A stretch of DNA of 64,000 nt from an uncultured Clostridia bacterium (GTDB lineage: Bacteria; Bacillota; Clostridia; Oscillospirales; CAG-272). The notes beneath the pieces are model-generated. The model saw only the letters and a list, made by a program, of their open reading frames with translations, had not been told where the DNA came from and did no database searches. Position numbers and translations under genes: made by a program. How positions within the stretch are numbered: the first letter of the stretch is position 1; every line of letters begins with the position of its first letter. The stretch covers positions 18,718-82,717 of the forward strand of contig CALWQR010000001.1 of assembly GCA_944383705.1 (NCBI GenBank), given 5' to 3'. Below are positions 11,434 through 47,252 of this stretch, piece after piece.

Positions 11434-11497
11434 CCTCCTTCCATAGTCCCGCGGGCAAAAGCCCGCGGGAAAGAACCAAGCAAGCGACGTTGGCCTG

Positions 11498-14212
11498 TTA
11501 TTGCTTTTGCTGGTCAAAATCGGCCAGCAAATCATCGAGCTTTTCTTCAATGGTGCCGCCAAACACCCGATAAATGCTGCCGAGATTAGCCGAAGCCGCC
11601 TGATTGTATCCGGCCAGCATATTGCGGATCTTGTGCAGCGGGTCCTCAATGGAAGCCCCGTACAGTGAGCCGAAATCGTACGCGATGGAATCGATAATCA
11701 TATCAAACAGTTCACCTGTGATGTCAGAGCTGGCGTAACGGACCTTGTAGGCCAGTTCATGATAGACCGGGCGTACATCCCGATAGGAGTACTCGGACAT
11801 CACCTCCAGCGTAGCAGTTGCCAATCCGAGATCTGCGCCGATGTTATAGGGCATAGAAACAATGCTGTAGGCATCCTGCGGCGTGGTGGCATAGCCTTCC
11901 TGCCCGGAGTTCAGCTTGGGCAGAGGAAGAATGCCATAGTGCAACGTGACATCGGTGGCAAATGTCTTTGCCGATTCCAACAGACCGAATTCCAGCATAC
12001 AACGACCGTTATAAAACACCTCATCCGAAAAATAGTTTGTAGTGGTGCCATAATACTCGTCGTTGGCTGTAGTACCGCGGTACAAGCCATCGCTTTGATA
12101 TATGAAGTCAAACAGCTCGGAAAAGGCATTGGTATACTGCGGCTCCTGAAAAGCCACCTGAATGTTGCCGTCCGCGGTCTTTTCCACCAGCGGAATCCCT
12201 ACCGCCATCAACATCGCATCAACGCACATCGACCCATTGTTGAATACCATCCCGTACAGGTCGCCCCCGCTTTGCTCACCATCGCGGTCAACATCATCGT
12301 ACACATCGTGAATCAGCTCCTGCACATATTCCAGGGTCCAGTTTCCATCCCGCACCACGGCGTACAGATCGCTCAATCCGTTGGTATAATCGGGATGATA
12401 GTCACCAAACAGGTCCTCGTTGAAAAAGGTCACAACCGAACGGTCGGTTGCCGTCAGCGTCACATCCCCCACAATAAAGTACAGCAGACCGTTGTAGCTG
12501 CACTCCTGTACAAAGGACTGATTGTACCAGGGCAGCTCGGTGGAAATATAATTGGCGGAATCGACGGTATTGAGATTGTAATAGAGGTTTTCGGCCGCCA
12601 ATGCCGAGCCGTAATAAGCATAGGTGGTGATGATATCGTAATACGGGCCGCCCATAATGGAGGTGCGCACGGTATTGAGGTACTCGGTAGATGCGTTGGT
12701 GCTGTTGGAGACAAAGTCCAGAGTCACACCCAGGCGGGCCTGCACGTTCTCGTTTCTTTCAAACACCTCATTGTCAATCAGGGCACCCGAGTATTCGGCG
12801 TCAAATTCCTCCTTGAAGTCTTCCCGGATCAGGATACTGACCGTTTCTCCGGGAAACATCAGGTCATCCGGAACCTTGGATTCCGGCATGGGCTCACCAC
12901 TCTCCGCGGACGTCTGCGCAGGAGAGGTCGGGCCCCCCTGCCCGCTGTCGCCTCCGCTGTTCCGGACCGCTGCCGAAATACCGACAATACACCCGACAAG
13001 AATCGCCAAAGCCAGCACACCGGCCACAATTCGGACCACCAGTTTGCCAATGCGCACAATGACCACAACGGCCGCGGCCACGGCAGCAATCATGACAATT
13101 GCCAGCACCACAATCAGAACCGTGTTGGGCTTTTGCGGCTCGGCGGGCGTCTCCCCGTTGCCGGAGAGTTCCCCGGTAGGGGTCGGCGGCACTGTGGTGA
13201 CCTCATCGGAGGGCTCCTCGGTCGGCTGCGGCCCCTCTCCCGTATCCGCATCCGTCTCCTCACCGGAGGGATCGTCCCCGCCGGGATCATCCGGCTGCAG
13301 TGTGGAGGGGATGCTCATGTCATATTCCGGAACGTTCCCTTCTGCGTCGGCCAGCGCCAGCACCGGATAACCGCCAAAATCGGAATTGCCCTGGGAGAGA
13401 GCAAAATTTTTGTAAGCATCCGTGTAATTGTAAAAATACATCTTGCCGTTTTCCAGATAATTTCCAATGGAAATGCGGAAGCTCATCTGGTACCCGGCCT
13501 CGGGTGCAAATACCGGATATCGCTCCTGAATGCAGCTCCAAGGAATGGCTATCTCCATCTGCCAGCCATCGTCGGTCAGCGCTGCGGCGCATTGCACACC
13601 CTCGGGCAGGTCCACATAGCTTTTGGCCGAGAGAGTGGGGTAGGTCATGCGCAGCTGAATCGCGCCGTTTGGCTGAGCCCCGTCATCGGCCAGCGTGGTA
13701 TAAAACTGCCAGATGTCCCCGTCCGCCTCACTCAGACAGAGAGATTCCAGCGGCTGAATGCCAAAAATGGCGCCTTCTGCTTTGGACCACGGCAGTGCGG
13801 CAGAGGTGCCGCCGGGGGTGGCAGGCGATTCGTAATAAACAAAATCGTCCACCCGGCTGTCCAGAATATACAACGCGTTTTCGTCCCACAGGAAACGGAG
13901 CGTTGCCTTGTTTCCCTCAGGCCATGCCTTGGTCTCATCGGTGCAAAGTCCGCCGTATTCGGTCAGAACTGCCTGCAGCTCGGGGTCGGCAGGGTCATAG
14001 ACCAGCACAGAGGCGTTCTGCCATTCTTCATCGGTTACGCTACCGTCAACGGTCGGAGCGGTCTCGGTATACACCGCGGTCCACTGAACATCGGTCAGCC
14101 AATAATCCTCAATTGTAGGGGACGCTTCCTCTGCCGATACCGGCAGAAGCGCCAGCGCGGTCAGCAGAACCGCAAGCAGCAGGGTCAGACAGCTTGATTT
14201 TCTATGTTTCAT
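11498..14212 (-). CDS. Surface protein: signal peptide, CBM9-like domain, acidic/Pro-rich linker, two hydrophobic helices, then a solute-binding-protein domain
   Basis: MKHRKSSCLTLLLAVLLTALALLPVSA. CBM9-like APTVDGSVTDEEWQNAS..ATLRFLWDENALYILD. VLIVVLAIVMIAAVAAAVVVIV-RIGKLVVR-IVAGVLALAILVGC. The C-terminal half aligns with SBP 3749..5239 (NENVQARLGVTLDF, ELPWYNQSF, FFNEDLFGDY). Confidence 0.8.
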   Translation of the reverse strand: MKHRKSSCLTLLLAVLLTALALLPVSAEEASPTIEDYWLTDVQWTAVYTETAPTVDGSVTDEEWQNASVLVYDPADPELQAVLTEYGGLCTDETKAWPEGNKATLRFLWDENALYILDSRVDDFVYYESPATPGGTSAALPWSKAEGAIFGIQPLESLCLSEADGDIWQFYTTLADDGAQPNGAIQLRMTYPTLSAKSYVDLPEGVQCAAALTDDGWQMEIAIPWSCIQERYPVFAPEAGYQMSFRISIGNYLENGKMYFYNYTDAYKNFALSQGNSDFGGYPVLALADAEGNVPEYDMSIPSTLQPDDPGGDDPSGEETDADTGEGPQPTEEPSDEVTTVPPTPTGELSGNGETPAEPQKPNTVLIVVLAIVMIAAVAAAVVVIVRIGKLVVRIVAGVLALAILVGCIVGISAAVRNSGGDSGQGGPTSPAQTSAESGEPMPESKVPDDLMFPGETVSILIREDFKEEFDAEYSGALIDNEVFERNENVQARLGVTLDFVSNSTNASTEYLNTVRTSIMGGPYYDIITTYAYYGSALAAENLYYNLNTVDSANYISTELPWYNQSFVQECSYNGLLYFIVGDVTLTATDRSVVTFFNEDLFGDYHPDYTNGLSDLYAVVRDGNWTLEYVQELIHDVYDDVDRDGEQSGGDLYGMVFNNGSMCVDAMLMAVGIPLVEKTADGNIQVAFQEPQYTNAFSELFDFIYQSDGLYRGTTANDEYYGTTTNYFSDEVFYNGRCMLEFGLLESAKTFATDVTLHYGILPLPKLNSGQEGYATTPQDAYSIVSMPYNIGADLGLATATLEVMSEYSYRDVRPVYHELAYKVRYASSDITGELFDMIIDSIAYDFGSLYGASIEDPLHKIRNMLAGYNQAASANLGSIYRVFGGTIEEKLDDLLADFDQQKQ

Positions 14213-14245
14213 GATTCATCCTTTCCCAGGCTATGCCTGTGTTCA

Positions 14246-15427
14246 TCAGAGTTCAACCGAAATGTCATCCTCCCAGGCGATGTGAAACCGTCTCTTTTGC
14301 GCAGTCATTTCCTGTACCATCACCTGTGTGGCAGGAAAGCTCTGGATGCGCTCCCAGTCCCGCTTCCGCAGCGGCCACAGCACATCCGGCGCGTTCACAA
14401 ACGGATAAAATGCAAGTGCCTCGGTATCCCAGCCATGGTGCGCAGCCTGATACCAGTCGCTTTTGAGATAGTCGCCATAACGCCCGGCCAACATACGGCA
14501 AGCCTTGCCGCAGCTCAGGTCGGCCGGAAAAAAGAGTTTTTTGCCCCGGACGGTAACCAATGTCACCATGGAGCAGTCGTTCATAGCGAGCGGGCCGTGC
14601 GGATAAAGATCCTCGTGTGTGTACAGTATTTCCACACTGGCCGTCCCCACGGTAAAGCGCTGCCCTGTGTGCGGTTTGTAAACCGCCGCTTGCGGCAGAT
14701 GCGTATGCAGCTCGTTGAGCCATAGCCCGCGGGCGGTGGCCAGACTGCCGATTTCCCGATACTGAATCGGAACCGAAAGTGATGGAAAATTGTACAGCAG
14801 ACAGCGCACATCGGTCATGCCGCCGTATTTTTTTGCAAACTGTACGGGGCCGGATACATGATCCCAATGCGGATGGGTCAGGATCCAGGCATCCACCACC
14901 GGCCGCTCACCGGGCGGCGTATCCCGGCAGAGGCACTGCCATAGCCGATCGTGATCGTTGCCGGCGTCCCCGTTGCCGTCGTAAATCAGGAAATGGCCCT
15001 GACCGAGTGAAAACACATAGCACATGCCGAAGTTTGCCGCCGTATCATCCGGACAGACCTGTGTCAGGGTGACTCCTGCGGATTCGGTCGGAGCATCTCC
15101 CAATCGCTCCGGCATGGGCCCCCCCTGGCAGTAAAGCACCCGCAGGGAGTGCTCCGAGGGAAAGCAGCCAAGGACGGTATAAACCTCCTTGCCGTCCTGC
15201 CAGGACGAAAAGCAGCAAAAGAGATTTCCGGCAGCCGAGCGCTCCCACAGCAGTTCTCCACCGGCAAGCAGCTCCTGTCGCAGCTGTCCGTATTCGGTCG
15301 GGCCGCCAGGCAGTACGGTTGCAAATACACCGTCGCCGCAGTCGTATACCGGTCGTTCCCGCAAGCGCGAGAGCTGCCGCACCGTGGCCAGCAGACGGCG
15401 ATATCCATTGATTGCATTGCGTTGCAT
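14246..15427 (-). CDS. ComEC/Rec2-type MBL-fold metallo-hydrolase (no signal peptide seen), paralog of the C-terminal half of 9373..11433
   Basis: Motifs ILTHPHWDHVSG and YQAAHHGWDTEA, plus shared blocks ANFGMCYVF / GNFGMGYIF and VEILYTHE in both. The start is ambiguous: ATG 15427 (MQRNAING) or TTG 15511. Confidence 0.75.
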   Translation of the reverse strand: MQRNAINGYRRLLATVRQLSRLRERPVYDCGDGVFATVLPGGPTEYGQLRQELLAGGELLWERSAAGNLFCCFSSWQDGKEVYTVLGCFPSEHSLRVLYCQGGPMPERLGDAPTESAGVTLTQVCPDDTAANFGMCYVFSLGQGHFLIYDGNGDAGNDHDRLWQCLCRDTPPGERPVVDAWILTHPHWDHVSGPVQFAKKYGGMTDVRCLLYNFPSLSVPIQYREIGSLATARGLWLNELHTHLPQAAVYKPHTGQRFTVGTASVEILYTHEDLYPHGPLAMNDCSMVTLVTVRGKKLFFPADLSCGKACRMLAGRYGDYLKSDWYQAAHHGWDTEALAFYPFVNAPDVLWPLRKRDWERIQSFPATQVMVQEMTAQKRRFHIAWEDDISVEL

Positions 15428-15519
15428 AGCCAAGCCTTTCTGTATCCGATAAAATTTCCGATAATACCGGACGGAACGCAGGGCAGCCGCCCCGTCCGGC
15501 AGAGCAATCAAAGCCTGAA

Positions 15520-15648
15520 TCAGGTAAACTCCTGTCCGCCAAGATCAAATTCCAGTCCGGAGCCCCCCTTCGTGACACTGATGGTCAGCAAATCGGAATC
15601 CGGCAGAAATTCCAGTTTCAATTCGGGCTGAAAATATATGTTTTTCAT
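15520..15648 (-). CDS. Candidate 42-aa small protein
   Basis: My translation: MKNIYFQPELKLEFLPDSDLLTISVTKGGSGLEFDLGGQEFT. ATG 15648 is preceded by GGAGGG at 6 nt. TGA stop at 15522..15520. It fills the gap between two operon genes. Below the ORF-track length cutoff. Confidence 0.4.
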   Translation of the reverse strand: MKNIYFQPELKLEFLPDSDLLTISVTKGGSGLEFDLGGQEFT

Positions 15649-15660
15649 CGCTTTCCCTCC

Positions 15661-18333
15661 TTATTCCACAAGAACACCGTCCGTAACCGTCAGACAACAG
15701 CCACTATCCAGACATTCATTGCCGGCAGCATCTGCCAGAAAGGCCCGAAGATAGATGCGGTAGGTGCCATCGGCCGGAATATTTGTCACAGTCAGCGCGC
15801 AGAGATAATCGGCTCCCAGCTGCTGGGCCGTTACGGACTCCATTCCTCTATCTGTATCTGCCAGAAGCGAGGTGTACACCGTGCTTCCGGCAATCCGCCC
15901 GGATACGGCCTTGCCGTCCTCGCGCACCACACGAAGATAAAATCCGACCTCGGTATACTCCTCCAGCGTTTTCCCTCCCAGGTCAACGGTACTGACCACG
16001 CGCAGCCGGGTACTGTCGCCGGCCGGAGCCGTAGGTTCCTGCACAAAAGCGGTTTCCGCCAGGGTTGGACGGAGCATCTCCGCCACACCGGCGGGAACTG
16101 CCAAACCTTCTGTCATGGTCCAGCCGATCAATGCCGGCAAATCCATCAGTTCGGTGGTTTCGGTCAAAGACCGGATCAACGAAGAGTGATTGGTTGTTGT
16201 GGAGGTATTGCTGTCCATTGCAGCCGAGCCGGTCTGCACTCCGTCATAGGTGACCGTAAGCGCGTAGTAGTTGTGCCAGGCGATCAGAGCATTGGCATTG
16301 GTCCCGGTGAGATAGTAAGTATCGGCAATCGATATTCTGGCCTGCTCGGTGCGGCTGTTGCATTCCAGATAGACCAGCGATCCCGAAAACCCATCCGTAC
16401 TGGGCACTGTGCGGGCATTGTAACAGCGGTTGAGGGTCAGATGCCCGCGGTTGAGCCCGACCAGTCCGCCATTGTGATTGGAAGTAGCCAGAATCTCCCC
16501 GTAATTGGCACAGTCTGAAAGTGTCAGTTCGGAAGAAGGGCTGTTTTCATCTGTTGCAAGGCTGTTGACGTTCCCGACGATTCCGCCAACCCCTGCCGAG
16601 CCCGAGACGGTACCATTGAATACCACGCTCTGCATTTCTGCCACGCCATAATAACAGCCGCCCAGAATACCACCGATGCAGTCGATTGCTGTGCCGTCGG
16701 TTTTTCTTCCTTCCACAATGGCCTCACTGTAGAGATTGCGGAACAACGACGGCTCCTCCCCACTGACCGAGCTGGCAATGCTGCCGATATAGTTCTTGGA
16801 AGTGGACAGAATGTAGGAATTGGTCATCCGGAAATTCTGAACGGTTGCCCCTACCAGTTTGACCAGCAATGCTGAACCGGAGCTTTCCTGATTGACGTAC
16901 ACGCCCGAGAGCGTGTAGCCGTCCCCGTCCAGTACGCCGCGAAATTCAACAATCGGAACCCACACACGCGCCGGGGCGGATTTGGTGGCCGCGTCCCATC
17001 CCGGATTGAGATCCACATCGCCGTTCATTCGCACAGTCAAGCCTTCATAATAGCCATAAGCGGCCGCATACGCGGCAAAATCGAACCAGTCATCGGCATC
17101 GGAAAGGTGAATGACGCCCGCGCCATCCTGCTCCAGCGGCAGAACCAGCTGTTCCATACCGGGCTTAGTAGCCAGCACGGGGAGTGTGGTCACTGTCTGA
17201 ATCACCCCCTTGGCATTGTCCCATGTTGTGGTTTTGTCGGCAAATGTCAAACGATCGGTCTCGCCTCCGGTATAGGACACCGTGACGTCAAAGCGGTTCC
17301 GCGATCCATGCAGGCCAATGCCGTGCTTCAGAACTGCCGCATCCGAGGTATAACAATCTGTGAACCGCACGGCAGCAACGGTTGTGGGGGTATTGGTTTC
17401 GGAATTGTTCTTTGTAATGGTCTTCCGATCCAAATAGGCAAGTCCTCCGCTCCACTGATTGTTTCCGGTGGAAATGGCCCCAAGGTTGGCACAGGCAATC
17501 AACTCGGCATCCGCGGCAATACGGCCGATCATCCCTCCCGCCTCGGTGCCAACGCTGTCTCCGCGCTGAGTCCGAACTGTGCCGTAATTGACGCAGCGCC
17601 GCAGGGTTGCCTTGTACTCGTTGCTGGTGCCGAGAATGCCTCCCACCATCACGCCGCCGCTCACCGTTCCGGAAAAGCTACAGTCGGTAAACTCGGCGTC
17701 TGCCCCGTATAATACGCCGCAGATTCCCCCAGCCACCTGCGAATATCCGGTTTCCGGAGTTTCGGTTTCAATCACAACATTGCTGTGTATATTCTCAAAC
17801 ACACACCGGTTATTGCTGACCGATGCCATCACACCGCCGCTGTAATCACCCGCGGACCAGATGTAACTGTTTTCGATACGCAAATCACGTATGATGCAGC
17901 CGTCCCCGCGCCAGATAAAGCCCTGGTTGCCTGCTCCGTTGAGATACAGACCGGAGATTGTGTAGCCCTGCCCGTCAAAGGTTCCCTTAAAGCGACTGAC
18001 CGGCGTCCAGACCCGCCCCCCGGCGGGCGCTGTCCTGGTAGCCGCATCCCAGCCGGGATTGAGATTCACGTTGCACATCAAGCGCACGGTCTGACTGTTG
18101 AAGCAGTCCAACCCGTTTGAGTCATCGGCACAGGCTGCGGCAAACGCAAACAGGTCATCGACCGAATCGATTTCCCATACCCCATCGCCGTTCGGGTCGC
18201 CCCATTCCTCTGCCGACAGGTCCGGAACGGGCAGAGCCGAGAGTGGCAGCACCCCCATGCTGCCGATGAGTATGGCCACCAGCAGAACGATTGCCAACAG
18301 CCGGACGGAACATTGGTTTTGGTGTGTCTTCAT
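15661..18333 (-). CDS. Secreted GLUG-motif / beta-helix repeat surface protein with an internal duplication
   Basis: Signal peptide VRLLAIVLLVAILIGSMGVLPLSA. Two ~400-aa repeats each carry NLNPGWDAAT..F(K/R)G(T/V)(F/L)DG(Q/D)GYT(I/L)SG(L/V)Y(L/V)N followed by GGI.G-type turns. C-terminal Ig-like domain. Confidence 0.75.
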   Translation of the reverse strand: MKTHQNQCSVRLLAIVLLVAILIGSMGVLPLSALPVPDLSAEEWGDPNGDGVWEIDSVDDLFAFAAACADDSNGLDCFNSQTVRLMCNVNLNPGWDAATRTAPAGGRVWTPVSRFKGTFDGQGYTISGLYLNGAGNQGFIWRGDGCIIRDLRIENSYIWSAGDYSGGVMASVSNNRCVFENIHSNVVIETETPETGYSQVAGGICGVLYGADAEFTDCSFSGTVSGGVMVGGILGTSNEYKATLRRCVNYGTVRTQRGDSVGTEAGGMIGRIAADAELIACANLGAISTGNNQWSGGLAYLDRKTITKNNSETNTPTTVAAVRFTDCYTSDAAVLKHGIGLHGSRNRFDVTVSYTGGETDRLTFADKTTTWDNAKGVIQTVTTLPVLATKPGMEQLVLPLEQDGAGVIHLSDADDWFDFAAYAAAYGYYEGLTVRMNGDVDLNPGWDAATKSAPARVWVPIVEFRGVLDGDGYTLSGVYVNQESSGSALLVKLVGATVQNFRMTNSYILSTSKNYIGSIASSVSGEEPSLFRNLYSEAIVEGRKTDGTAIDCIGGILGGCYYGVAEMQSVVFNGTVSGSAGVGGIVGNVNSLATDENSPSSELTLSDCANYGEILATSNHNGGLVGLNRGHLTLNRCYNARTVPSTDGFSGSLVYLECNSRTEQARISIADTYYLTGTNANALIAWHNYYALTVTYDGVQTGSAAMDSNTSTTTNHSSLIRSLTETTELMDLPALIGWTMTEGLAVPAGVAEMLRPTLAETAFVQEPTAPAGDSTRLRVVSTVDLGGKTLEEYTEVGFYLRVVREDGKAVSGRIAGSTVYTSLLADTDRGMESVTAQQLGADYLCALTVTNIPADGTYRIYLRAFLADAAGNECLDSGCCLTVTDGVLVE

Positions 18334-18417
18334 CCTTTCAATTCCCTTTCTGTCAGATATTTGACTGGCTACGGAACAGAAGCCGCAACCGGCAAACCAC
18401 TCCGCGCCGCCAGTTTT

Positions 18418-18446
18418 ATTATATACAATTGCCCGTTAAATGTAAA
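18418..18446 (-). promoter_or_regulatory. Promoter (TTTACA-17-TATAAT) of the 18333->9373 operon, inside an AT-rich region
   Basis: Minus-strand TTTACA at 18446-18441 and TATAAT at 18423-18418, with a 17-nt spacer. It sits about 85 nt upstream of the ATG at 18333. Confidence 0.55.
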
Positions 18447-18702
18447 TCCCTCCATGTCACCTATATGCACGATTATGTAAATTTGAATTTTTTTGTTTTT
18501 CTGTTTTGCATAAATCACGATTCCATATTTTAAGCATATAAAACAAATCAAAAATAAAATTCGACGGCACATTTAAGCAATCAGAGAACAAAAAAGAAAA
18601 GTAAAGCAGCAACCATGAAAAAGCAAAATGTTTATGTAATGTATATGTAAAGTCACAGCAATTGTATATCAGACAACCGGAGCCGGTCATGCGTCATGCA
18701 GA

Positions 18703-18748
18703 ACAGCCCCGCCCCGGATGCGCTTTGCACATCCGGGGCGGGGCTGTA
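18703..18748 (-). terminator. Palindromic repeat copy 2; probable terminator of the thioesterase gene / T-box operon
   Basis: CCCCGCCCCGGATGCGCTTTGCACATCCGGGGCGGGGCTG has the same core and orientation as 9273-9311. It lies 120 nt downstream of the stop at 18867. The minus-strand T-tract is weak (CTGTTCTG). Confidence 0.6.
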
Positions 18749-18866
18749 TCGTTTTGGGCGGTTTGCGGAGGCCGGGTCGGGCGGACGGCCGCGGGGCGCG
18801 GCCTTGCCTGACGGTATGGTCTGCCGCTGGCCGGGCCCTGTTAAAGGGGGCTGCCGTTGTTCGGCC

Positions 18867-19349
18867 TTACCGCGTGGCCTGCCGCTGGGCGGCCTTCTGG
18901 CGAGCGACCTCGTCAAAGAGCTGCCGCTCTTGCTCGGTCACGGGCTCCAGTGGCGGGACCGGGCGCGGGCGCTCGTCGGCGTCCAGGGCAACCAGGGTAA
19001 AGTAGCCGTCGGCCACCGGATGGCGGGTGCCGTCCAGATCCTCGGTCTCGGCCTGCACCAGAACCACCATGGAGGTGCGGCCGGTCCATATCACGCGGGC
19101 CGACACGACAATGGTTTCGTTCTGCCGGGCGGGGTGCAGAAAGCGCAGCCGCTCGATACATGCCGTGGTAACGGCGCTGTTGGCGTACCGCCGGGCGCTG
19201 ACCGCCGCGGTGTCGTCCATCCAGGTCAGCAGATCTCCGCCGAACAGCCGGTCGGCGCCGTTCATATTCGCGCGCGTCAGAATGCGCACGAATTCGGCAG
19301 CCGAATCGGCCGCGTGACCTGCCCGTTTTTCGGTTTCGGGTTCCATCAT
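18867..19349 (-). CDS. Acyl-CoA thioesterase (hotdog fold, YciA/Acot-like)
   Basis: MMEPETEKR... then ANMNGADRLFGGDLLTWMDDTAAVSARRYA..TACIERLRFLHPARQNETIVVSARVIWTGRTSMVV. Start re-set to ATG 19349 (GGAAGGA RBS). Confidence 0.7.
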   Translation of the reverse strand: MMEPETEKRAGHAADSAAEFVRILTRANMNGADRLFGGDLLTWMDDTAAVSARRYANSAVTTACIERLRFLHPARQNETIVVSARVIWTGRTSMVVLVQAETEDLDGTRHPVADGYFTLVALDADERPRPVPPLEPVTEQERQLFDEVARQKAAQRQATR

Positions 19350-19377
19350 ATCCTTCCGCTTCCTTCTGTTCCGCTTT

Positions 19378-19806
19378 TCAGTCGCCGAATCCGGCAAAGT
19401 CCGCCTCGTCAAAGCCGTGTCTGCGCAGGATTTCCTCGGCCACTTCCATGTCCTCCACCTGCACAATCATAATCGCCTTGCCCGAGACCTTTGCCACATA
19501 GGCATACATATATTCGACATTGATGCCGCTTTCCGCCAGCACCCGCAGCGCGCCCAGCGCGCCGCCCGGCGCGTCCTGCGCCGAGAGCGCCAGCACATTG
19601 GTCAGGCGCACCACAATTCCCTCGTTGGCCAGCACCTCACGTCCCTTTTCGGGCTGATCGACAATCAGGCGCAGAATGCCGAACTCGGCAGTATCCGCCA
19701 GCGAGAGCGCGCGGATATTGATGTGATTTTTGGCCAGGGTGTCGGCCACCGCGCACAGCCGCGCGGTCTCGTTCTCCAAAAAAACCGAAAGCTGCTTGGT
19801 AATCAT
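19378..19806 (-). CDS. ACT domain-containing protein (tandem ACT)
   Basis: MITKQLSVFLENETARLCAVADTLAKNHINIRALSLADTAEFGILRLIV plus a second ACT-like half. This is the typical partner of paaK/iorAB clusters. Confidence 0.75.
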   Translation of the reverse strand: MITKQLSVFLENETARLCAVADTLAKNHINIRALSLADTAEFGILRLIVDQPEKGREVLANEGIVVRLTNVLALSAQDAPGGALGALRVLAESGINVEYMYAYVAKVSGKAIMIVQVEDMEVAEEILRRHGFDEADFAGFGD

Positions 19807-19824
19807 ATCGCTTCTCCCTTCCGC

Positions 19825-21135
19825 TCACATTTTTCCCGACCGGTTGTCCACCACCCGCCGGGCCTTGCCTTCGCTGCGTACAATGGTTTTCGGGTTGACC
19901 AGATGCACCTTGGCGCCGATGCCCAGCGTGGAGCGGAGCTGCTCGGTGATGTTGCGCTCCAGCGCCTCGATGGCCCGGACGTTGTCCGAGAAAAACGCCT
20001 CGCTCATCTCCACGTTGACATCGAAGGTGTCGGTATTGTTGACCCGGTCCAGCACAATCTGATAGTTCGGCGTGATGCGGTTGCCGCTCACGCGCAGCAG
20101 CACCTCCTCGATCTGGGAGGGGAAGACGTTGACGCCCCGGATGATCAGCATATCGTCGGTGCGCCCGCTCGGCTTGCTCATGCGGACATGCGTGCGCCCG
20201 CAGGGACAGTCTTCCCGGATCAGCCGGCAGATATCCCTTGTGCGGTAGCGGATGACCGGAAATGCCTCCTTGGTCAGCGACGTGAACACCAGTTCGCCCA
20301 CTTCTCCCTCCGGCAGCACCTCGCCCGTGTCGGGATTGATGGTCTCGGCAATGAAGTGGTCCTCCCAGACATGCATTCCCGCCTGCTCGCTGCACTCGCA
20401 GGCCACGCCCGGGCCCAGCACCTCGGAAAGCCCGTAGATGTCATATGCCCGCAGGCCGAGCTTTTCCTCAATTTTGCGGCGCATGTTCTCGGACCACGGC
20501 TCGGCGCCGAAAATGCCGATGCGCAGCCGGAGCTGATCCTGCACGCCCATCCGCTCGGCCTCCTCACCCAGATACATGGCGTAGGAGGGGGTGCAGCAGA
20601 GCACCGTTGCGCCAAAGTCCACCATGGTCTGAATCTGGTTGGCGGTATTGCCCGAGGAAATGGGAATGACGGTTGCCCCGAGGCGCTCGGCGCCGCTGTG
20701 GGCACCAAAGCCGCCGGTAAACAACCCGTAACCAAAGGACACCTGCACAATATCCTCGGCCGTCACGCCGAGCCCGGCCATCATGCGGGCGACGCATTCG
20801 CCCCACATATCCAGGTCATTCCGGGTGTAGCCCACCACAATGCGCTTGCCCGTGGTGCCCGAGGATGCGTGCAGACGCACCACATCCTTCATCGGCACGG
20901 CAAACAGCCCGTAGGGGTAGTAATCGCGCAGATCCTTTTTGTAGGAAAACGGCAGCAGGTGCAGGTCCTCCACCCCCCGGATGTCGCCGGGGCGGAGCCC
21001 TTTTTCGTCCATGCGGCGGCGGAAGCACTCCACCCGCTCGTAGGAGCGGCGCACCTGCTCGCACAGCCGGCGGCTCTGCAGGGCGCGCAGTTCGTCATAG
21101 GACATGCACTCTTCTTTGGAATTGAGGTATTTCAT
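19825..21135 (-). CDS. paaK: Phenylacetate--CoA ligase family protein
   Basis: MKYLNSKEECMSYDELRALQSRRLCEQVRRSYERVECFRRRMDEKGLRPGDI..LPFSYKKDLRDYYPYG..SSGTTGK. Start re-set to ATG 21135 (GAAGGAG RBS). Confidence 0.85.
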   Translation of the reverse strand: MKYLNSKEECMSYDELRALQSRRLCEQVRRSYERVECFRRRMDEKGLRPGDIRGVEDLHLLPFSYKKDLRDYYPYGLFAVPMKDVVRLHASSGTTGKRIVVGYTRNDLDMWGECVARMMAGLGVTAEDIVQVSFGYGLFTGGFGAHSGAERLGATVIPISSGNTANQIQTMVDFGATVLCCTPSYAMYLGEEAERMGVQDQLRLRIGIFGAEPWSENMRRKIEEKLGLRAYDIYGLSEVLGPGVACECSEQAGMHVWEDHFIAETINPDTGEVLPEGEVGELVFTSLTKEAFPVIRYRTRDICRLIREDCPCGRTHVRMSKPSGRTDDMLIIRGVNVFPSQIEEVLLRVSGNRITPNYQIVLDRVNNTDTFDVNVEMSEAFFSDNVRAIEALERNITEQLRSTLGIGAKVHLVNPKTIVRSEGKARRVVDNRSGKM

Positions 21136-21155
21136 GCAATGATCTCCTTCGGCAT

Positions 21156-21722
21156 TCAGAGTTGATAGCCCAGCGCAAAGGCCCGGAGGTTGACGTCCAG
21201 GAACCTTGCCGGGACGGTGTCCCGCAGGGTTTCCAGCCACTCGTCATACGGAATGGCGGTGTTCTTTGCCATCACGCCGATCAGCACCACGTTCACGGCC
21301 TTCTCCGAGCCGGCCCGGCGCGCCAGCTCCAGCGCATCCACGGCGGTCAGATCGGCCTGGGCCGAGAGCTTCCCGACAATGTCCCGGGGATATTCCGCCG
21401 CGCCGGTAATCACCGGCATGGGGTTGATCTGCTGGGTGTTGACGATGATTTTGCCTCCCGCCCTCAGCCAGGGCAGCGCGCGGTAGGCCTCCAGCAGCTC
21501 GAAGGCCAGAACGATGTCGGCCTCACCGCGGTCGATGACGGGGGACCAGATACGGTCGCCGTATTTGACATATGTCACCACGCTTCCCCCGCGCTGGCTC
21601 ATGCCGTGCACCTCGGAGACCTTGACGTCATAGCCCCGGCGCACCACCGCGTTGCCGAGAATCCGGCTGGCCAGCAGGGTCCCCTGCCCGCCTACGCCGA
21701 CAATCATGATGTTGGTTTGCAT
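21156..21722 (-). CDS. iorB: Indolepyruvate:ferredoxin oxidoreductase subunit beta
   Basis: MQTNIMIVGVGGQGTLLASRILGNA..VKVSEVHGMSQRGGSV. Size and position directly after iorA fit. Confidence 0.85.
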   Translation of the reverse strand: MQTNIMIVGVGGQGTLLASRILGNAVVRRGYDVKVSEVHGMSQRGGSVVTYVKYGDRIWSPVIDRGEADIVLAFELLEAYRALPWLRAGGKIIVNTQQINPMPVITGAAEYPRDIVGKLSAQADLTAVDALELARRAGSEKAVNVVLIGVMAKNTAIPYDEWLETLRDTVPARFLDVNLRAFALGYQL

Positions 21723-21723
21723 C

Positions 21724-23472
21724 TCAGTCCTCCTCCTTTTCGATGGCGCCGAACGGGCAGACGCCCACGCAAAGTCCGCAGCCGTTGCACTGCGTCGGGT
21801 CGATGGAAACCGCTCCGGTGGCGGCGTCCAGGCTGATGGCCGGACAGCCGAGCTTTATGCAGACCTTGCATTTGCGGCAGCGGTCGCTCACCCGGCAGTG
21901 CCCGGTGTAGCGCACCTTTTTGAGCAGGGCGCAGGGCCGCTGCGCGATGATGACCGAGGGCTCCTCGCACTGGGTCTCCTGCCGCACCACCTGCTCCAGG
22001 CGCTTGGTGTCAAACGGGTCCACCACCTCGATGCGGTCAATGCCCACGCTGCGGCACAGCCCGATCAGGTCCACCTGCCGGGTGGCCTCGCCGCGGATGG
22101 TTTTGCCGGTGGTGGGGTTGTCCTGATGCCCGGTCATGCCGGTGATGGAGTTGTCCAGAATGATGACGGTGTTGATCCCCTTGTTATATACAATGTCGAT
22201 CAGCCCCGTGATACCGGAATGGATAAAGGTGGAATCGCCGATGACCGAAACCAGCTTTTGGGCAAATTCCCTGCCCCGCACCTTGGCCATGCCGTGCGCC
22301 GCGCTGACCGACGCCCCCATGCAGACCGTGGTATCCACCGCAGAGAGCGGCGCCGCGGCCCCCAGCGTATAGCAGCCGATGTCGCCCGAGACCACCAGCC
22401 CCAGCTTATGCAGCACATAAAAGGTTCCGCGATGCGGGCAGCCCGCGCACATGACCGGGGGGCGCGCCGGCAGCGTCTCCGCAGGGGTGCGGACCGGGGC
22501 GGGCTCCTCCCCCAGCACCACCCGGCGGATCATAGAGGGGGTATATTCCCCCAGCGGGGTGAAGAGCCGCTTGCCCTGCACCGGCAGACCCATGGCCAGG
22601 CAGGCCTCCTCCAGGAAGGGGTCCAGCTCCTCTATCACATACACGGTCTCGCAGGATGCGACAAAATCCCGCAGCAGCCGCTCGGGCAGAGGCCAGACCA
22701 TCCCCAGCTTGCAGTAGCTGACGCGGTCGCCCAGCGCCTCCTTTGCGTACTGGTAGGAGATGCCCGAGGCAATCACCCCGATCCCGCCCGCGTGGCGCTC
22801 CACCGTATTGAAGGCGCAGTCCTCGGCATAGGCGGCCAGCCGGCCGGTCCGCTCCTCCACAAACACATGCCGCCCGATGGCCATGGCAGGCATCATGACG
22901 TTTTTGGGGACATTCTTTTCATAGTCCTTCAGGGGTTGCTCGGTCCGTATGCCGGTCTCCACCAGGCTCTGGGAGTGCGACACCCGCGTGGAAAGCCGCA
23001 GCAGCACCGGAGTGTCGAAGCGCTCGCTCAGGTCGAACGCCGCCTTGGTATAGGCCAGGCATTCGGCCGAATCGGACGGCTCGAGCATGGGAATCTTGGC
23101 GGCCTTGGCGTAGTGGCGGGAATCCTGCTCGTTCTGCGAGGAGTGCATCCCGGGGTCGTCCGCTACGCAGAAGACCGCACCCCCGCCCACGCCGATGTAG
23201 GCGTCGGTAAACAGCGGGTCGGCCATGACGTTCAGCCCGACGTGCTTGCAGCAGGACATGGCACGCCCCCCGGCAATGGCCGCGCCGATGACGGCCTCGG
23301 CCGCCACCTTTTCGTTGGGAGCCCACTCCACAAACACCTCCTCGGCAGGATAGGTGGCCATGCACTCGGTAATCTCGGTGCTGGGGGTCCCGGGGTAGGA
23401 GGAAACCAGCCGCACCCCCGCCTCGTAGGCGCCCTGCGCCACGGCGGCGTTTCCAAGCAACAGTTTTTTCAT
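21724..23472 (-). CDS. iorA: Indolepyruvate:ferredoxin oxidoreductase subunit alpha (TPP and 2x[4Fe-4S])
   Basis: MKKLLLGNAAVAQGAYEAGVRLVSSYPGTPSTEI. TPP-binding GDSTFIHSGITG. C-terminal ferredoxin motifs CRKCKVC..CP and CNGCGLCVGVCP. Confidence 0.85.
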   Translation of the reverse strand: MKKLLLGNAAVAQGAYEAGVRLVSSYPGTPSTEITECMATYPAEEVFVEWAPNEKVAAEAVIGAAIAGGRAMSCCKHVGLNVMADPLFTDAYIGVGGGAVFCVADDPGMHSSQNEQDSRHYAKAAKIPMLEPSDSAECLAYTKAAFDLSERFDTPVLLRLSTRVSHSQSLVETGIRTEQPLKDYEKNVPKNVMMPAMAIGRHVFVEERTGRLAAYAEDCAFNTVERHAGGIGVIASGISYQYAKEALGDRVSYCKLGMVWPLPERLLRDFVASCETVYVIEELDPFLEEACLAMGLPVQGKRLFTPLGEYTPSMIRRVVLGEEPAPVRTPAETLPARPPVMCAGCPHRGTFYVLHKLGLVVSGDIGCYTLGAAAPLSAVDTTVCMGASVSAAHGMAKVRGREFAQKLVSVIGDSTFIHSGITGLIDIVYNKGINTVIILDNSITGMTGHQDNPTTGKTIRGEATRQVDLIGLCRSVGIDRIEVVDPFDTKRLEQVVRQETQCEEPSVIIAQRPCALLKKVRYTGHCRVSDRCRKCKVCIKLGCPAISLDAATGAVSIDPTQCNGCGLCVGVCPFGAIEKEED

Positions 23473-23498
23473 CTATGTAGTTCCTTTCCGTATGGCGT

Positions 23499-25133
23499 TC
23501 AGCGTTCGATCTGCTGCGCAACCAGGCTCTCGCCGCAATACTGCCGGCGGAGCTTGGGCTTTTCGATTTTTCCGGTGGGATTGCGCGGCACCGGTGCGAA
23601 GATAATGCGGCGGGGGCGCTTGTAGCGGGGCAGCTCATGGCAAAAGCGCATCAGCTCCTCCTCGGTCAGCGCAGCGCCCGGCTTGCGCTCCACAATGGCT
23701 GCGGCAATCTCCCCCAGGCGCGGGTCGGGCAGACCGATGACCGCCACATCCTTGACGGCGTCGTTCCGGCGGATGAAATCCTCAATCTGCACGGGGTAGA
23801 GATTCTCTCCCCCGGTGATGATGACGTCCTTTTTGCGGTCCACCAGGTAAATAAAGCCGTCCTCATCCTCCATGGCCATATCCCCGGTCAGCAGCCAGTC
23901 GCCGTGCAGCACCTCGGCCGTGGCCTGGGGGTCCTTGTAGTAGCACTTCATCACGCCGGGGCCGCGGACACACAGCTCCCCGACCTCCCCGCGCGGGACG
24001 GGGCGCTCGTGCTCGTCCACAATCCGGACCTGCCAGCCGTACCCCGCCCGGCCGATGGCCCCGACCTTGTCGGTATTCCCGACCCCGAGGTGCACGCAGC
24101 CAGGGCCGATGGATTCGGAAAGCCCGTAGTTGGTGTCATACTGATGGTGCGGGAAGACCGTGAGCCAGCGGTGAATCAGCGAGGGCGGCACCGGCTGCGC
24201 GCCGATGTGCATCAGCCGCCACTGCCCGAGGCTGTAATCCTCGGGATGCAGCTCACCACGCTCGATGGCGTCCAGAATGTCCTGCGCCCAGGGCACCAGC
24301 AGCCAGACGATGGTACAGTGCTCCTCCGACACCGCCCGCAGAATCCATTCGGGCCGGGTCCCCTTGAGCAGCACAGCGCGTCCCCCGCTCATCAGCGAGC
24401 CGAACCAGTGCATTTTGGCGCCGGTGTGGTACAGGGGCGGAATGCAGAGGAAGACGTCCTCGTGCGTCTGCCCGTGGTGATTCTGCTCCACCCGCGCGGC
24501 ATGAATCAGGCTGCGGTGGGGGTGCAGGATGGCCTTGGGAAAGCCGGTGGTGCCCGAGGAAAAATAGATGGCGGCATCGTCCTCCTCGCGCAGCGGCAGC
24601 GCCGGGTCGGCATCGGTGCAGTAGGAAATCATTTTTTCATAGCTGTCGGCAAACGTGGGGCAGTCCTCCCCGACGTAAAACATGTGCCGGACGCCGGGCA
24701 GCCGGTCGCAGATTTCCTCCATCCGTCCGACAAACTCCGGACCGAACACCAGCACCGAGCAGTCGGCCTTTTCCAGACAGTAGCGGATTTCCTCGGCCAC
24801 GTACCGGTAATTCAGCGGGACCACCACCGCGCCGGCCTTCAGCACCCCGAAATAGACGGGCAGCCATTCGATGGAGTTCATCAGCAGAATGGCCACCTTG
24901 TCCCCCGGGCGGCAGCCCCGCGACATCAGCAGATTGGCAAAGCGGTTGGCGCGCGCCTGGAACTCCCCCCAGGTAATGGCGCGGTGAAAGGGCTTGCCGG
25001 GCTCGGGCTGAACCAGCGAATACTCCCGCCAGGTGATCCGGCTTTCGGGCTCAAAGCAGGGGTTGATTTCGGTCAGAGCGGTCTCGTTTGCATACAGAGA
25101 GGCGTTCTGGTTCAGCAAATCGACAATGGTCAT
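23499..25133 (-). CDS. AMP-forming acyl-CoA synthetase/ligase (ANL superfamily); substrate unknown
   Basis: MTIVDLLNQNASLYANETAL. ANL motifs YFSSGTTGFPKA, YGLSE, LTGD and GKIEKPKLR. Start re-set to ATG 25133 (AAGGAG at 9 nt). It is the first gene behind the T-box. Confidence 0.85.
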   Translation of the reverse strand: MTIVDLLNQNASLYANETALTEINPCFEPESRITWREYSLVQPEPGKPFHRAITWGEFQARANRFANLLMSRGCRPGDKVAILLMNSIEWLPVYFGVLKAGAVVVPLNYRYVAEEIRYCLEKADCSVLVFGPEFVGRMEEICDRLPGVRHMFYVGEDCPTFADSYEKMISYCTDADPALPLREEDDAAIYFSSGTTGFPKAILHPHRSLIHAARVEQNHHGQTHEDVFLCIPPLYHTGAKMHWFGSLMSGGRAVLLKGTRPEWILRAVSEEHCTIVWLLVPWAQDILDAIERGELHPEDYSLGQWRLMHIGAQPVPPSLIHRWLTVFPHHQYDTNYGLSESIGPGCVHLGVGNTDKVGAIGRAGYGWQVRIVDEHERPVPRGEVGELCVRGPGVMKCYYKDPQATAEVLHGDWLLTGDMAMEDEDGFIYLVDRKKDVIITGGENLYPVQIEDFIRRNDAVKDVAVIGLPDPRLGEIAAAIVERKPGAALTEEELMRFCHELPRYKRPRRIIFAPVPRNPTGKIEKPKLRRQYCGESLVAQQIER

Positions 25134-25445
25134 TGGTAAAATCTCCTTTTGTTCAGAGCCGCAGAGAATACAAAAAATCCCCTGCGCAGATTCGCAGAGG
25201 ACGATGGGAACACCGCGGTACCACCTCTGTTGCCGGGGACACCCCCGGCCACTCGGATAGCGGACAGACAACTGCCGCGTCTGTGCTGTAACGGGCATAC
25301 CCGGCGCAGCCTACAGGGGCCACCGCCCGTTCGGTGCGCAACTCGCGGAATGTATTCGGAACGCCACTGCCACTGCCTCGCACCGCCCGGCAGCTCTCTG
25401 CGCGCCCGGGACGCCCCTACTTGTTTCCGGTCAGCATCTTTCTTT
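25134..25445 (-). promoter_or_regulatory. T-box riboswitch leader with candidate specifier codon UAC (Tyr)
   Basis: Minus-strand elements in canonical order:
- K-turn UGA..CGAG.
- Specifier-loop 5' side AGUA (25421-25418).
- AG bay AGAGAG (25399-25394).
- Distal hairpin CUGCC-GGGCGGUGCGA-GGCAG.
- Specifier-loop 3' side GAA-UAC-A (25357-25351), flanked by helices GGGGCG/CGUUCC and CGGAA/UUCCG.
- F-box CCGUUA (25294-25289).
- Stem III GCCGGGG-GUGU-CCCCGGC.
- T-box GGUGGUACCGCG (25225-25214).
- Antiterminator AGAGG[UGGUACC]GCGGUG..CAUCGU CCUCU.
- Competing terminator CCUCUGCG..GCGCAGGGG plus U6 (25200-25172). Confidence 0.85.
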
Positions 25446-25462
25446 TTATTATAGCACAGCTT

Positions 25463-25491
25463 ATTATAGCACAGCCCGTCCGGTTTGTCAA
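25463..25491 (-). promoter_or_regulatory. Perfect consensus promoter (TTGACA-17-TATAAT) of the T-box operon
   Basis: Minus-strand TTGACA at 25491-25486 and TATAAT at 25468-25463. A second TATAAT at 25453-25448 arises from a 15-bp tandem duplication. Confidence 0.7.
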
Positions 25492-25504: not shown

Positions 25505-25541
25505 GAAAAACCGCAAAGGGCGGCAGACATCCGCCCTTTGC
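25505..25541 (-). terminator. Rho-independent terminator of the TPM/zinc-ribbon/SPFH operon
   Basis: Minus-strand CAAAGGGCGG-atgtctg-CCGCCCTTTG followed by CGGTTTTTCC. Confidence 0.7.
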
Positions 25542-25617
25542 ACAGTGCCGGGCGCGCAGCAGCCCGGCCCCGGGCATACCGGGGCACCACGCCGGCTCCG
25601 GCAGCCGGCGCCGCCCG

Positions 25618-38037: not shown

Positions 38038-38123
38038 GGGAGATTTCCCGAGTGGCCAAAGGGGGCAGACTGTAAATCTGTTGTCGTTTGACTTCGGTGG
38101 TCCGAATCCACCATCTCCCACCA
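38038..38123 (+). tRNA. tRNA-Tyr (anticodon GUA), class II long variable arm, CCA encoded
   Basis: Acceptor GGGAGAT/ATCTCCC, anticodon loop CTGTAAA, variable arm GTC-gttt-GAC, T arm GGTGG-TCCGAAT-CCACC, discriminator A, then CCA. Confidence 0.85.
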
Positions 38124-44142: not shown

Positions 44143-45200
44143 GGAGAAGACCTTGGAGGGCCCCGCCTGTGAAGGTTCCCACCGATGGAGAAGACCTTGG
44201 AGGGACCCGCCTAGGAAGGCTCCCCCGGGCGGTACAGACCGGGCAACTTCTTGCATCTTTTCCGTCATGCATCGCAAGCCGTCTCGGCAATAGGGGTAAC
44301 TATTGCCATCAACGGTTTACTCGCCTGACGAAAAATCTGCTTCGGATTTACCCGGTCCGTCCCACCCGGTGAAGCCTTTCGGAGAGGCCGGTCCCTCGGG
44401 GGCCCCTCCGGCGAGACCTTCCCCGGCGCAAGGCCCCCGGTTTTGCATACTGTGTTGCAAACACGGTACGCCCGGGGGCCTGCGCCGGGGAATTCCTTTT
44501 GGAGGGCGGATGGGGTTTTGAGATTGGCGGATGGGGTTTTGAGGTTGGCGGATGGGCGCGAGTGGGTGGCGAAACTCCGGAATACCTGCTTTTTTGTGCG
44601 TCTGGCATGATGCTTTGAAAAGAACAATTCGCAATGTGCAAAGTGCAGGAAACAGCGGGCAGCGGACAGCAGGTCGTGCGCAGTGGCCAGTGGTCAGGGG
44701 TCAGAAAAAAGCAAGAGCAACAGTTGATATAGTACATACAAATTCATCCATAATATCCATACTATTGAAAAAACGGGCAACCCATGGCGGCTGTCCGGTT
44801 TTCTGATATGCAGGGCAAATCGCTTTGTATGGCGGTATGCTCTTATTTTTTGCTCACCTCTCCCTGAAAAAGGGCTTCCCCGGCTGCCGCCCGCCGGCGG
44901 GGGCTGTCATGCGCACGCACCTGAAAGACGCAGGAAGGCTGGAAATATCTCCATGCATTCTACTATGGAATCGCGTCAGTCCGCAAACATCAGAATCCCA
45001 TCCTACCCCAAGAAAAATTCCCCGGCGCAGGCCCCCGGGCATATCGTATTTGCAATACCGTATGCATTGATGGGGGCCTGTGTCGGGGAAAGGTCTCGCC
45101 GGGGGAGGCTTGGAGGGACCGGCCTCTCCTTAAGAGGCGGGTCTCTCCAAGGTCTTCTCCAATGGCGGGACTCTTCCCAGGCGGGTCTCTCCAAGGTCTT
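44143..45200. mobile_element. ORF-less mosaic repeat bounded by doubled inverted termini, copy 2 (~1058 bp)
   Basis: Left termini GGAGAAGACCTTGGAGGG(C/A)CCCGCC at 44143-44167 and 44187-44211. Right termini GGCGGGTCTCTCCAAGGTCTT(CTCC) at 45136-45160 and 45180-45200. Palindromic units at 44419-44496 and 45014-45092. A 20-bp tandem repeat at 44504-44570. Confidence 0.7.
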
Positions 45201-47029: not shown

Positions 47030-47103
47030 AATAATTTCCCTGTTCCTTTTCTGAAAAAAGTGTATTCGGAAAAAACCGTGCCGGAAACGGGCTCCGGACG
47101 GTA

Positions 47104-47252
47104 TGTACCGATATGACAACAGGGTTTGTTTTGCGGTTGCCCGCATATTTGCCTGCCGTTGACGATGCGCTCCCGCGCACCGGAGAAGCATCCGCCGAAG
47201 GTTCGATCACTTCTCTCCTCGTTAACCGCCCACCGGCGGTCTGGCGCTATCA
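47104..47252 (-). ncRNA. glmS ribozyme (GlcN6P-dependent self-cleaving riboswitch)
   Basis: The minus strand reads AUAGCGCCAGACCGCCGGUGGGCGGUUAACGAGGAGAGAAGUGAUCGAACCUUCGGCGGAUGCUUCUCCGG. It matches the conserved AGCGCCAGA / ACGAGGA / GAUCGAA..UUCGGCGGAUGC core, in the canonical position 5' of glmS. Confidence 0.85.

Follow-up and report, generated by a model that had tools for sequence, protein, structure and literature searches.

A tyrosine-specific T-box leader ahead of an indolepyruvate:ferredoxin oxidoreductase operon in gut Clostridia and its probable part in tyrosine salvage

The DNA considered here, called the window throughout, is a stretch of 64,000 nucleotides (nt) from an uncultured Clostridia bacterium (Oscillospirales, CAG-272; contig CALWQR010000001.1, positions 18,718 to 82,717), and our subject is a T-box leader RNA on its minus strand together with the six genes that follow it: an ANL-superfamily acyl-coenzyme A (acyl-CoA) ligase, the two subunits of an indolepyruvate:ferredoxin oxidoreductase (IOR), a PaaK-type ligase, an ACT-domain protein and a thioesterase. 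An earlier note on this DNA had proposed that the leader responds to tyrosine and that the operon is a salvage route induced by Tyr starvation. We consider it most likely, with a probability of about 65%, that this Tyr T-box governs a single six-gene unit which salvages extracellular arylacetates into Tyr. The elements of the locus, in the order in which the minus strand is read and with the gene of the cognate tRNA last, are the following.

25512..25542, minus strand: terminator-like hairpin of the upstream gene (12-bp stem with 8 G-C, then a T-run)
25463..25491, minus strand: sigma-70 promoter TTGACA-17-TATAAT with an upstream TG (extended), 12/12 match; -35 box TTGACA at 25491..25486, -10 box TATAAT at 25468..25463, spacer 17 nt
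25446..25475, minus strand: perfect tandem duplication of 15 nt, GCTGTGCTATAATAA x2, from direct reading of the sequence
25194..25443, minus strand: T-box leader (Stem I, Stem II, IIA/B, Stem III, antiterminator), Rfam RF00230
25341..25437, minus strand: Stem I, from the cmscan alignment
25352..25354, minus strand: specifier codon UAC (Tyr), from the cmscan specifier columns
25195..25229, minus strand: antiterminator, from folding
25171..25202, minus strand: intrinsic terminator of the leader (10-bp stem, 6-nt loop, U6)
23499..25133, minus strand: gene 1, ANL-superfamily acyl-CoA ligase, 544 aa (PF00501, 5.6e-79, and PF13193)
21724..23472, minus strand: gene 2, IorA, IOR alpha subunit, 582 aa (TIGR03336)
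21156..21722, minus strand: gene 3, IorB, IOR beta subunit, 188 aa (NF005325, PF01558)
19825..21135, minus strand: gene 4, PaaK-type AMP-forming arylacetate-CoA ligase, 436 aa (TIGR02155, PDB)
19378..19806, minus strand: gene 5, ACT-domain-pair protein, 142 aa (PF19571 ACT_8, 5.6e-27)
18867..19349, minus strand: gene 6, 4HBT-fold acyl-CoA thioesterase, 160 aa (PF03061, 1e-13)
18701..18750, minus strand: large perfect hairpin 3' of gene 6 (21 bp, -49.5 kcal/mol, z -9.5)
38038..38123, plus strand: tRNA-Tyr(GUA), the cognate effector (ARAGORN, Rfam and sequence)

When the whole window was scanned against all Rfam families, a single T-box leader was found, which matched RF00230 over its full length (model positions 1-219 of 219) at 100.8 bits (gathering score 93, E 4.7e-21) and lay within a few bases of where the earlier note had placed a complete leader. 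Stem I comprises the AG bulge AGAGA (25399..25395) and a distal loop, which in T-boxes make contact with the elbow of the tRNA, and a specifier loop made up of AGUA at 25421..25418 and GAA-UAC-A at 25357..25351, that is, the S-turn motif, the codon and a purine. This is the specifier of the earlier note, which saw complementary helices on its flanks; cmscan agrees, putting UAC in the specifier columns, and the flanking helices covary across the 26 leaders described below. A rival specifier, GAA-CGG-G, was considered and rejected, because its bases fall on the Stem II 'cccGAAa' motif in the cmscan alignment. The single-sequence minimum-free-energy fold of Stem I was no better than that of shuffled sequences (z +1.41; the context is GC-rich) and RNAalifold on a MAFFT alignment recovered the distal helix alone, so Stem I was judged through the Rfam-derived structure and by counting pairs.

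The 3' part of the leader holds the switch. The antiterminator is built of CAGAGG, the bulge UGGUACC, GCGGUG-UUCC-CAUCGU and CCUCUG, and when folded alone it has an energy of -13.3 kcal/mol and accounts for 88% of the ensemble. Its 7-nt bulge (25223..25217) lies within AGAGGUGGUACCGCG, and the UGGU in it is complementary to the tRNA 3' end ACCA, the variable position being a U that matches A73. The tRNA-Tyr(GUA) in the window ends in ...CUCCC-A-CCA, with A73 and an encoded CCA, so that both the bulge suited to A73 and the tRNA carrying it are present as had been stated; because A73 is common among tRNAs, the match speaks for consistency and is no proof. The terminator stem (25202..25177) with its U6 reaches -16.7 kcal/mol (z -4.3) and shares CCUCUG with the 3' arm of the antiterminator, making the two structures mutually exclusive. 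That the terminator is the more stable of the pair is the usual ordering, which means that the tRNA is needed to tip the balance. Judged by model match, codon and competing folds, the RNA is confirmed as a canonical transcription-attenuating T-box riboswitch with predicted specificity for tRNA-Tyr.

The consensus scan also bears out the perfect promoter reported earlier and adds its upstream TG, and the promoter is kept in two of the relatives introduced below, L001 and L003. The tandem duplication is not in the earlier note and was found on re-reading: it creates a second TGnTATAAT -10 box at 25453..25448, so that there are two extended -10 boxes (TGCTATAAT), with the 17-nt distance to the -35 box holding for the first only. 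The orthologous leaders and promoters of L001 and L003 do not have the duplication.

Pfam and NCBIfam confirmed all six gene identities, the one correction being the start of gene 1, which is 25133 and not 25134. Gene 1, preceded by the ribosome-binding site AGGAG at 25147..25143, reaches no NCBIfam cut-off and, among PDB entries, is best matched by FadD13 and by a feruloyl-CoA synthetase; we propose that it is an arylacetate-CoA ligase, perhaps one for 4-hydroxyphenylacetate. IorA scores 698.4 bits against the TIGR03336 cut-off of 650.9 and contains thiamine pyrophosphate domains and a 2x[4Fe-4S] domain (Pfam POR_N, TPP_enzyme_C and Fer4), while IorB, 1 nt behind it, scores 275.2 bits against the NF005325 cut-off of 230, so that the profile scores place both firmly within their family. 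The gene 4 product belongs structurally with PaaK (PDB 2y27, E 6e-135; 4r1l, 3.5e-115, a Bacteroides thetaiotaomicron protein named a phenylacetate-CoA ligase) but at 544.2 bits falls below the TIGR02155 equivalog cut-off of 646.3, and is therefore called PaaK-type rather than PaaK. The ACT protein, whose PDB match is 2f06 (4.4e-24), is probably a small-molecule-binding regulatory subunit. Gene 6 weakly matches YciA and PaaI (25 bits for PaaI, where the cut-off is 118.9).

The gaps between these genes, from gene 1 to gene 6, are 26, 1, 20, 18 and 28 nt, which is the tight spacing of 1 to 28 nt that had been noted, and a consensus scan of the minus strand over 18867..25133 found no promoter-like or terminator-like site that might uncouple iorAB and paaK from the leader. 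Upstream, the hairpin at 25512..25542 is predicted to insulate the operon promoter; downstream, the hairpin at 18701..18750 is likely to be the end of the transcription unit, albeit with a weak U-tract. The latter hairpin is far stronger than a typical intrinsic terminator. Short gaps, the lack of internal sites and hairpins at both ends together indicate one insulated transcription unit behind the T-box.

How widely is this arrangement kept? We compared 80 loci encoding IorA relatives (L001-L080, one genome per species), with IorA 60-89% identical to that of the window; all are from Clostridia, with metagenome-assembled genomes of gut or rumen as the source of nearly all. The ANL-IorA-IorB-PaaK-ACT core is widely kept among them, the ACT gene following paaK in nearly all. 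Rfam detects a T-box ahead of the operon, above the gathering score, in 23 loci, and a family-specific nhmmer profile detects one in another two, which makes 25 other species-level genomes (IorA 67-89% identical). Counting only loci with enough upstream sequence, the T-box is found in 25 of 48 ANL-carrying operons versus 0 of 16 operons that have no ANL gene, and an ANL gene is present in all 26 loci with a T-box. Eleven related loci with full upstream sequence had neither a T-box nor any other known RNA element, the upstream regions of such relatives being short promoter-proximal leaders that share no motif. When IorA is arranged in a neighbour-joining tree, loci with and without a T-box are intermingled across the ingroup, and the outgroup has none, a distribution that fits an old acquisition followed by repeated loss. 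One such locus, L002, is sister to the window and L001 (IorA 83% identical): its T-box is lost and TTGACA-17-TATAAT kept, and at ~3900..4220 it has a ~110-nt leader that ends in a GC-rich hairpin and U5, perhaps the remains of a terminator or else an attenuator of another type.

The leaders themselves are divergent (mean column identity in Stem I is 67%) and the UAC codon is invariant in 26 of 26, with GGUGGUACC conserved in all of them; in the leader alignment (A1) little or no variation is seen in the AGAGA and GGUG..A columns, and the leader of the nearest relative, L001, is almost base for base that of the window. Pairing holds in 84.4% of the Stem I cells across the 26 leaders, a share that drops to 32-47% once the partners are slid, and 19 of 21 Stem I pairs show compensatory changes; none of 500 shuffles reached the observed values. 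In four leaders (L051, L057, L060 and L061) there is an extra U between GAA and UAC (GAAUUAC; Stem I of L051 is at 4023..4139), and the codon is followed by G, C, U and C in that order, so that the last three depart from the usual purine. Reading these leaders as UUA (Leu), or the GAAAUAC of L013 as AUA (Ile), was rejected, since cmscan, with which L013, L051, L060 and L061 were re-scanned (L057 was read by analogy), accommodates the surplus base in an optional column behind GAA, so that the specifier columns still hold UAC; hence all five were counted as Tyr.

An independent scan of a metagenome collection, for which the Stem I pattern was used with the codon left as NNN, returned 19 matches, and every one of them has UAC. 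Seventeen are followed by a sodium:solute symporter (SSS) or ANL gene, the other two contigs ending too early, and none of the 19 precedes a tyrS-like context. From this free-codon scan we conclude that the leader subfamily, the Tyr codon and the SSS/ANL-iorAB operon travel together. The covariance model, the 25 other genomes and the 19 metagenome contigs therefore bear out Tyr-specific T-box control of the operon, the central claim of the earlier note.

The operons of the relatives also hold genes that the window lacks. In 13 loci the T-box stands one or two genes further upstream, before an SSS gene (PF00474) that is joined to the ANL gene by short gaps, and in 4 of these 13 a protein of the Amidohydro_2 family (263-271 aa; L017 2935..3726, L018 3563..4354, L019 3540..4355, L031 3552..4343) is encoded between symporter and ANL ligase, inside the T-box unit. 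This family includes reversible phenolic-acid decarboxylases. Eleven loci, of which four have a T-box, encode a class I/II aminotransferase directly 3' of the ACT gene. Thirteen loci encode a multi-pass membrane protein of 224-241 aa with no Pfam or NCBIfam match (L010 8355..9035, L061 5774..6448 and 11 others), in most carriers between iorB and paaK and in L051 after the ACT gene, which may be an arylacetate channel or exporter. The thioesterase, by comparison, is restricted to the closest relatives (L001, L002, L014, L015 and L062). Taken together, the extended T-box unit would provide for uptake, ATP-dependent CoA activation, reversible ferredoxin-dependent (de)carboxylation and transamination. 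Two further RNAs were seen near these operons: a full-length OLE RNA (RF01071, 480-487 bits) directly 3' of the ACT gene in L018 (10479..11114) and L019 (10330..10965), both gut Clostridia genomes with the T-box operon, and an FMN riboswitch (RF00050, 107.6 bits) in L051 (12269..12383, minus strand), ~2 kb downstream of the operon and on the opposite strand.

A T-box acts as a built-in functional label, for it shows which amino acid shortage the downstream genes should relieve. What a T-box switches on are genes that provide more of its cognate amino acid; pairing of the uncharged cognate tRNA stabilises the antiterminator and allows readthrough. In the window, as long as tRNA-Tyr is mostly charged, the terminator at 25202..25171 would form and transcription would stop before gene 1. 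Once uncharged tRNA-Tyr accumulates, its anticodon GUA would pair with the specifier UAC in Stem I and its free ACCA end with the UGGU of the bulge, the antiterminator would be stabilised and RNA polymerase would read through into the operon. The ANL and PaaK-type ligases would then join CoA in thioester linkage to an arylacetate, most likely 4-hydroxyphenylacetate and possibly phenylacetate or indoleacetate as well, a step that consumes ATP and yields AMP; IorAB, using reduced ferredoxin and CO2, would carboxylate 4-hydroxyphenylacetyl-CoA to 4-hydroxyphenylpyruvate; and an aminotransferase, encoded in the operon of some relatives and presumably elsewhere in this genome, would yield Tyr. The ACT protein would probably exert allosteric control or feedback, and the thioesterase would probably be a safety valve that releases CoA when acyl-CoA accumulates, by analogy with PaaI. 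Rumen bacteria were shown decades ago to make Phe from phenylacetate by such a reductive carboxylation, and the operon assigns candidate genes to rumen-type reductive carboxylation of arylacetates, along with suggested functions for an unassigned ANL ligase, the SSS protein and the ACT protein.

Why should the flux run in the anabolic direction? An operon that degraded Tyr under a Tyr T-box would be self-defeating, and one that is switched on by Tyr starvation within a Clostridia clade is most likely anabolic; both ligases, moreover, are AMP-forming, which favours thioester synthesis. The same point has been argued for Bacteroides in a 2026 paper (PMC13285125), where AMP-forming arylacetate-CoA ligases beside an IOR are said to imply biosynthesis, energy-conserving oxidative routes using ADP-forming ligases or phosphotransacylase-kinase pairs instead. 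IOR is, in addition, reversible and methanogens use it anabolically (Tersteegen 1997 and Porat 2004, through PMC13285125 and PMC4162585). The salvage route of the earlier note therefore stands as regards control by a Tyr T-box, and its anabolic direction, which we infer, is supported by the symporter and aminotransferase of the relatives, by the occurrence of the T-box only with the ANL ligase and by the enzymological argument of PMC13285125.

Several observations weigh against salvage into Tyr. The source is an uncultured metagenome-assembled genome and the reading rests on sequence evidence; the operon in the window has neither a transporter nor an aminotransferase gene; and its thioesterase would, in an anabolic route, waste the ATP spent by the ligases. 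The ANL ligase matches generic fatty-acyl, feruloyl and coumaroyl-CoA ligases only, so that 4-hydroxyphenylacetate is not singled out, and the symporter of the relatives could import Tyr itself and not a precursor. About half of the related ANL-iorAB operons are without the T-box, which means that this regulation is not obligatory. Finally, the IOR of B. thetaiotaomicron contributes to the formation of phenylacetate from Phe (PMC13285125, citing Zhu 2023), and the same enzyme family can thus run oxidatively in vivo.

Three other explanations were weighed against these points. The chief competitor is that the operon serves general aromatic salvage, turning phenylacetate, 4-hydroxyphenylacetate and indoleacetate into Phe, Tyr and Trp, with Tyr as a sentinel only. 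IORs do act on phenyl-, hydroxyphenyl- and indolepyruvate (PMC13285125), the operon has two different ligases and the PaaK-like protein is closest to phenylacetate-CoA ligases; all the same, we think this an outside chance, albeit one to be taken seriously, since UAC occurs in 45 of 45 leaders and a Phe or Trp codon in none, even where the codon was left free, and since the specifier of a T-box as a rule corresponds to what the pathway under its control makes (Wels 2008, PMC2494555). The strict co-occurrence of T-box and ANL ligase further suggests a Tyr-specific component, and it may be the ANL ligase that supplies the Tyr-specific step.

Could the operon instead be catabolic, with IOR converting amino-acid-derived arylpyruvates to arylacetyl-CoA, the thioesterase releasing the arylacetate and the T-box having some other rationale? 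The presence of the thioesterase suits this, as does the part of IOR in phenylacetate formation by B. thetaiotaomicron and in peptide fermentation by Pyrococcus (PMC13285125), and the aminotransferase of the relatives suits either direction. Yet inducing Tyr degradation by uncharged tRNA-Tyr would be counterproductive, most T-box loci are without the thioesterase, and the operon has two AMP-forming ligases with no ADP-forming ligase and no phosphotransacylase-kinase pair, the hallmarks of an energy-conserving oxidative route (PMC13285125), which makes a catabolic role quite unlikely. Slightly less probable still, and likewise unlikely, is that in this strain the leader survives as a relic, decaying or without regulatory function, and that the operon is expressed constitutively from its strong duplicated promoter. 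The score of the leader is near the low end of the Rfam matches of the family in the comparison set, the sister locus L002 has lost its T-box and the -10 duplication is unique to this strain; against this, the score is above the curated threshold, L001 keeps the leader almost unchanged, and every motif is intact, namely AGUA/GAA, AGAGA, the distal loop, GGUGGUACCGCG, the 7-nt bulge and the terminator with U6.

Preferring, then, Tyr salvage from arylacetates, we may ask what it would mean for the clade as a whole. More tentatively, and at a little short of even odds, a large gut and rumen clade of Oscillospirales may possess a dedicated Tyr salvage pathway sensed through tRNA-Tyr, consisting of an importer, a 4-hydroxyphenylacetate-specific ANL ligase, IOR working as a carboxylase and an aminotransferase; T-box carriers may, as part of this, also lack de novo Tyr synthesis. 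If so, these bacteria would be net consumers of arylacetates rather than producers, and the T-box-linked ANL ligase would be a previously unassigned 4-hydroxyphenylacetate-CoA ligase. Arylacetates are precursors of p-cresol and phenylacetylglutamine, and IOR of gut bacteria is usually read as a catabolic enzyme that yields phenylacetate, 4-hydroxyphenylacetate and indoleacetate and so feeds the formation of these two compounds. The opposite, biosynthetic direction has been raised for the Bacteroides IOR on enzymological grounds (PMC13285125). The direction of IOR in gut bacteria is currently under debate, and the T-box contributes independent regulatory evidence from at least 26 species-level genomes and 19 metagenome contigs.

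The earlier note had remarked that ior and paaK are not standard members of a T-box regulon, and the literature agrees: our search found no link of a T-box with indolepyruvate, ferredoxin oxidoreductase, phenylacetate or CoA ligase, its scope leaving out Vitreschak 2008 and RegPrecise, so that an earlier record is possible, and the T-box survey of Wels 2008 (PMC2494555) makes no mention of ferredoxin or oxidoreductase. Regulon membership of the SSS/ANL-iorAB operon therefore appears to be new, while the regulator and its mechanism are known, and the operon reveals no new mechanism of regulation.

The surroundings of the operon in the window are unrelated to it: its neighbours encode a TPM-domain protein, a Band-7 protein, a HemN-like protein and large proteins without Pfam matches, and among 20 open reading frames (ORFs) scanned outside the operon there was no aromatic amino acid gene, transporter or aminotransferase. 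Four consecutive large ORFs on the minus strand (9373..18333; 758, 904, 421 and 890 aa) have no Pfam match and are preceded by an unusually AT-rich spacer of ~300 nt (18400..18700) with an 11/12 promoter match at 18446..18418. Elsewhere, a glmS ribozyme (RF00234, 74.2 bits; 47107..47259, minus strand) lies at the 5' end of an ORF (45200..47191, minus strand) that is presumably glmS, and a phosphoglucosamine-mutase-like gene is close by (48079..49446, minus strand).

How does the operon compare with systems already known? As for the RNA, the tyrS leader of B. subtilis has a UAC specifier like that of the window. It and the other T-boxes of RF00230 are like the window in the AGUA/GAA loop of Stem I, the AG bulge and the distal loop, and RF00230 members share with it the 14-nt T-box sequence, the 7-nt UGGN bulge set against a competing terminator, and regulation by attenuation. 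What differs is the target, which is usually an aminoacyl-tRNA synthetase, de novo biosynthesis or a lone transporter and in the window is an oxidoreductase and CoA-ligase operon. A parallel in logic is found in the Bacillus cereus group, where a Tyr T-box stands before a tyrosine biosynthesis operon and before phenylalanine 4-hydroxylase (Wels 2008, PMC2494555). There too a Tyr T-box turns on an alternative route to Tyr when tRNA-Tyr is uncharged, although Tyr is made there by the shikimate pathway or through aerobic hydroxylation of Phe, whereas the route proposed for the window is the anaerobic, ferredoxin-dependent carboxylation of an arylacetyl-CoA.

To our knowledge, archaea are without T-boxes and the Bacteroidota do not use them, and in both groups it is the enzymes that invite comparison. 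In the methanogenic archaea Methanococcus maripaludis (Porat 2004) and Methanobacterium (Tersteegen 1997) the IorAB family carboxylates activated aryl acids, as we propose here, and the available text of PMC4162585 and PMC13285125 describes no link of their IOR to a tRNA sensor. Bacteroides iorAB resembles the window in having an IOR beside a PaaK-type AMP-forming ligase; the flux direction is debated and the in vivo evidence points to phenylacetate production (PMC13285125; Zhu 2023, Cell Host Microbe), and the available part of PMC13285125 mentions neither an extra ANL ligase nor a thioesterase, both of which are present in the window. The aerobic paa catabolon likewise combines a TIGR02155-like ligase with a hot-dog-fold thioesterase in one operon, whereas the operon of the window has no ring-epoxidase genes (paaABCDE) or downstream genes, its PaaK match is below the equivalog cut-off and its match to PaaI is weak. 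Comparable in chemistry is HpdDEFG of Clostridium scatologenes and C. difficile, which carries out the same ferredoxin-dependent interconversion of 4-hydroxyphenylpyruvate and 4-hydroxyphenylacetyl-CoA that is proposed for the window. According to PMC13285125, HpdDEFG is a VOR-like enzyme of four subunits that is coupled to an ATP-yielding Pta/kinase or ADP-forming ligases and works catabolically toward p-cresol, the opposite of the logic that we propose for the Tyr T-box operon.

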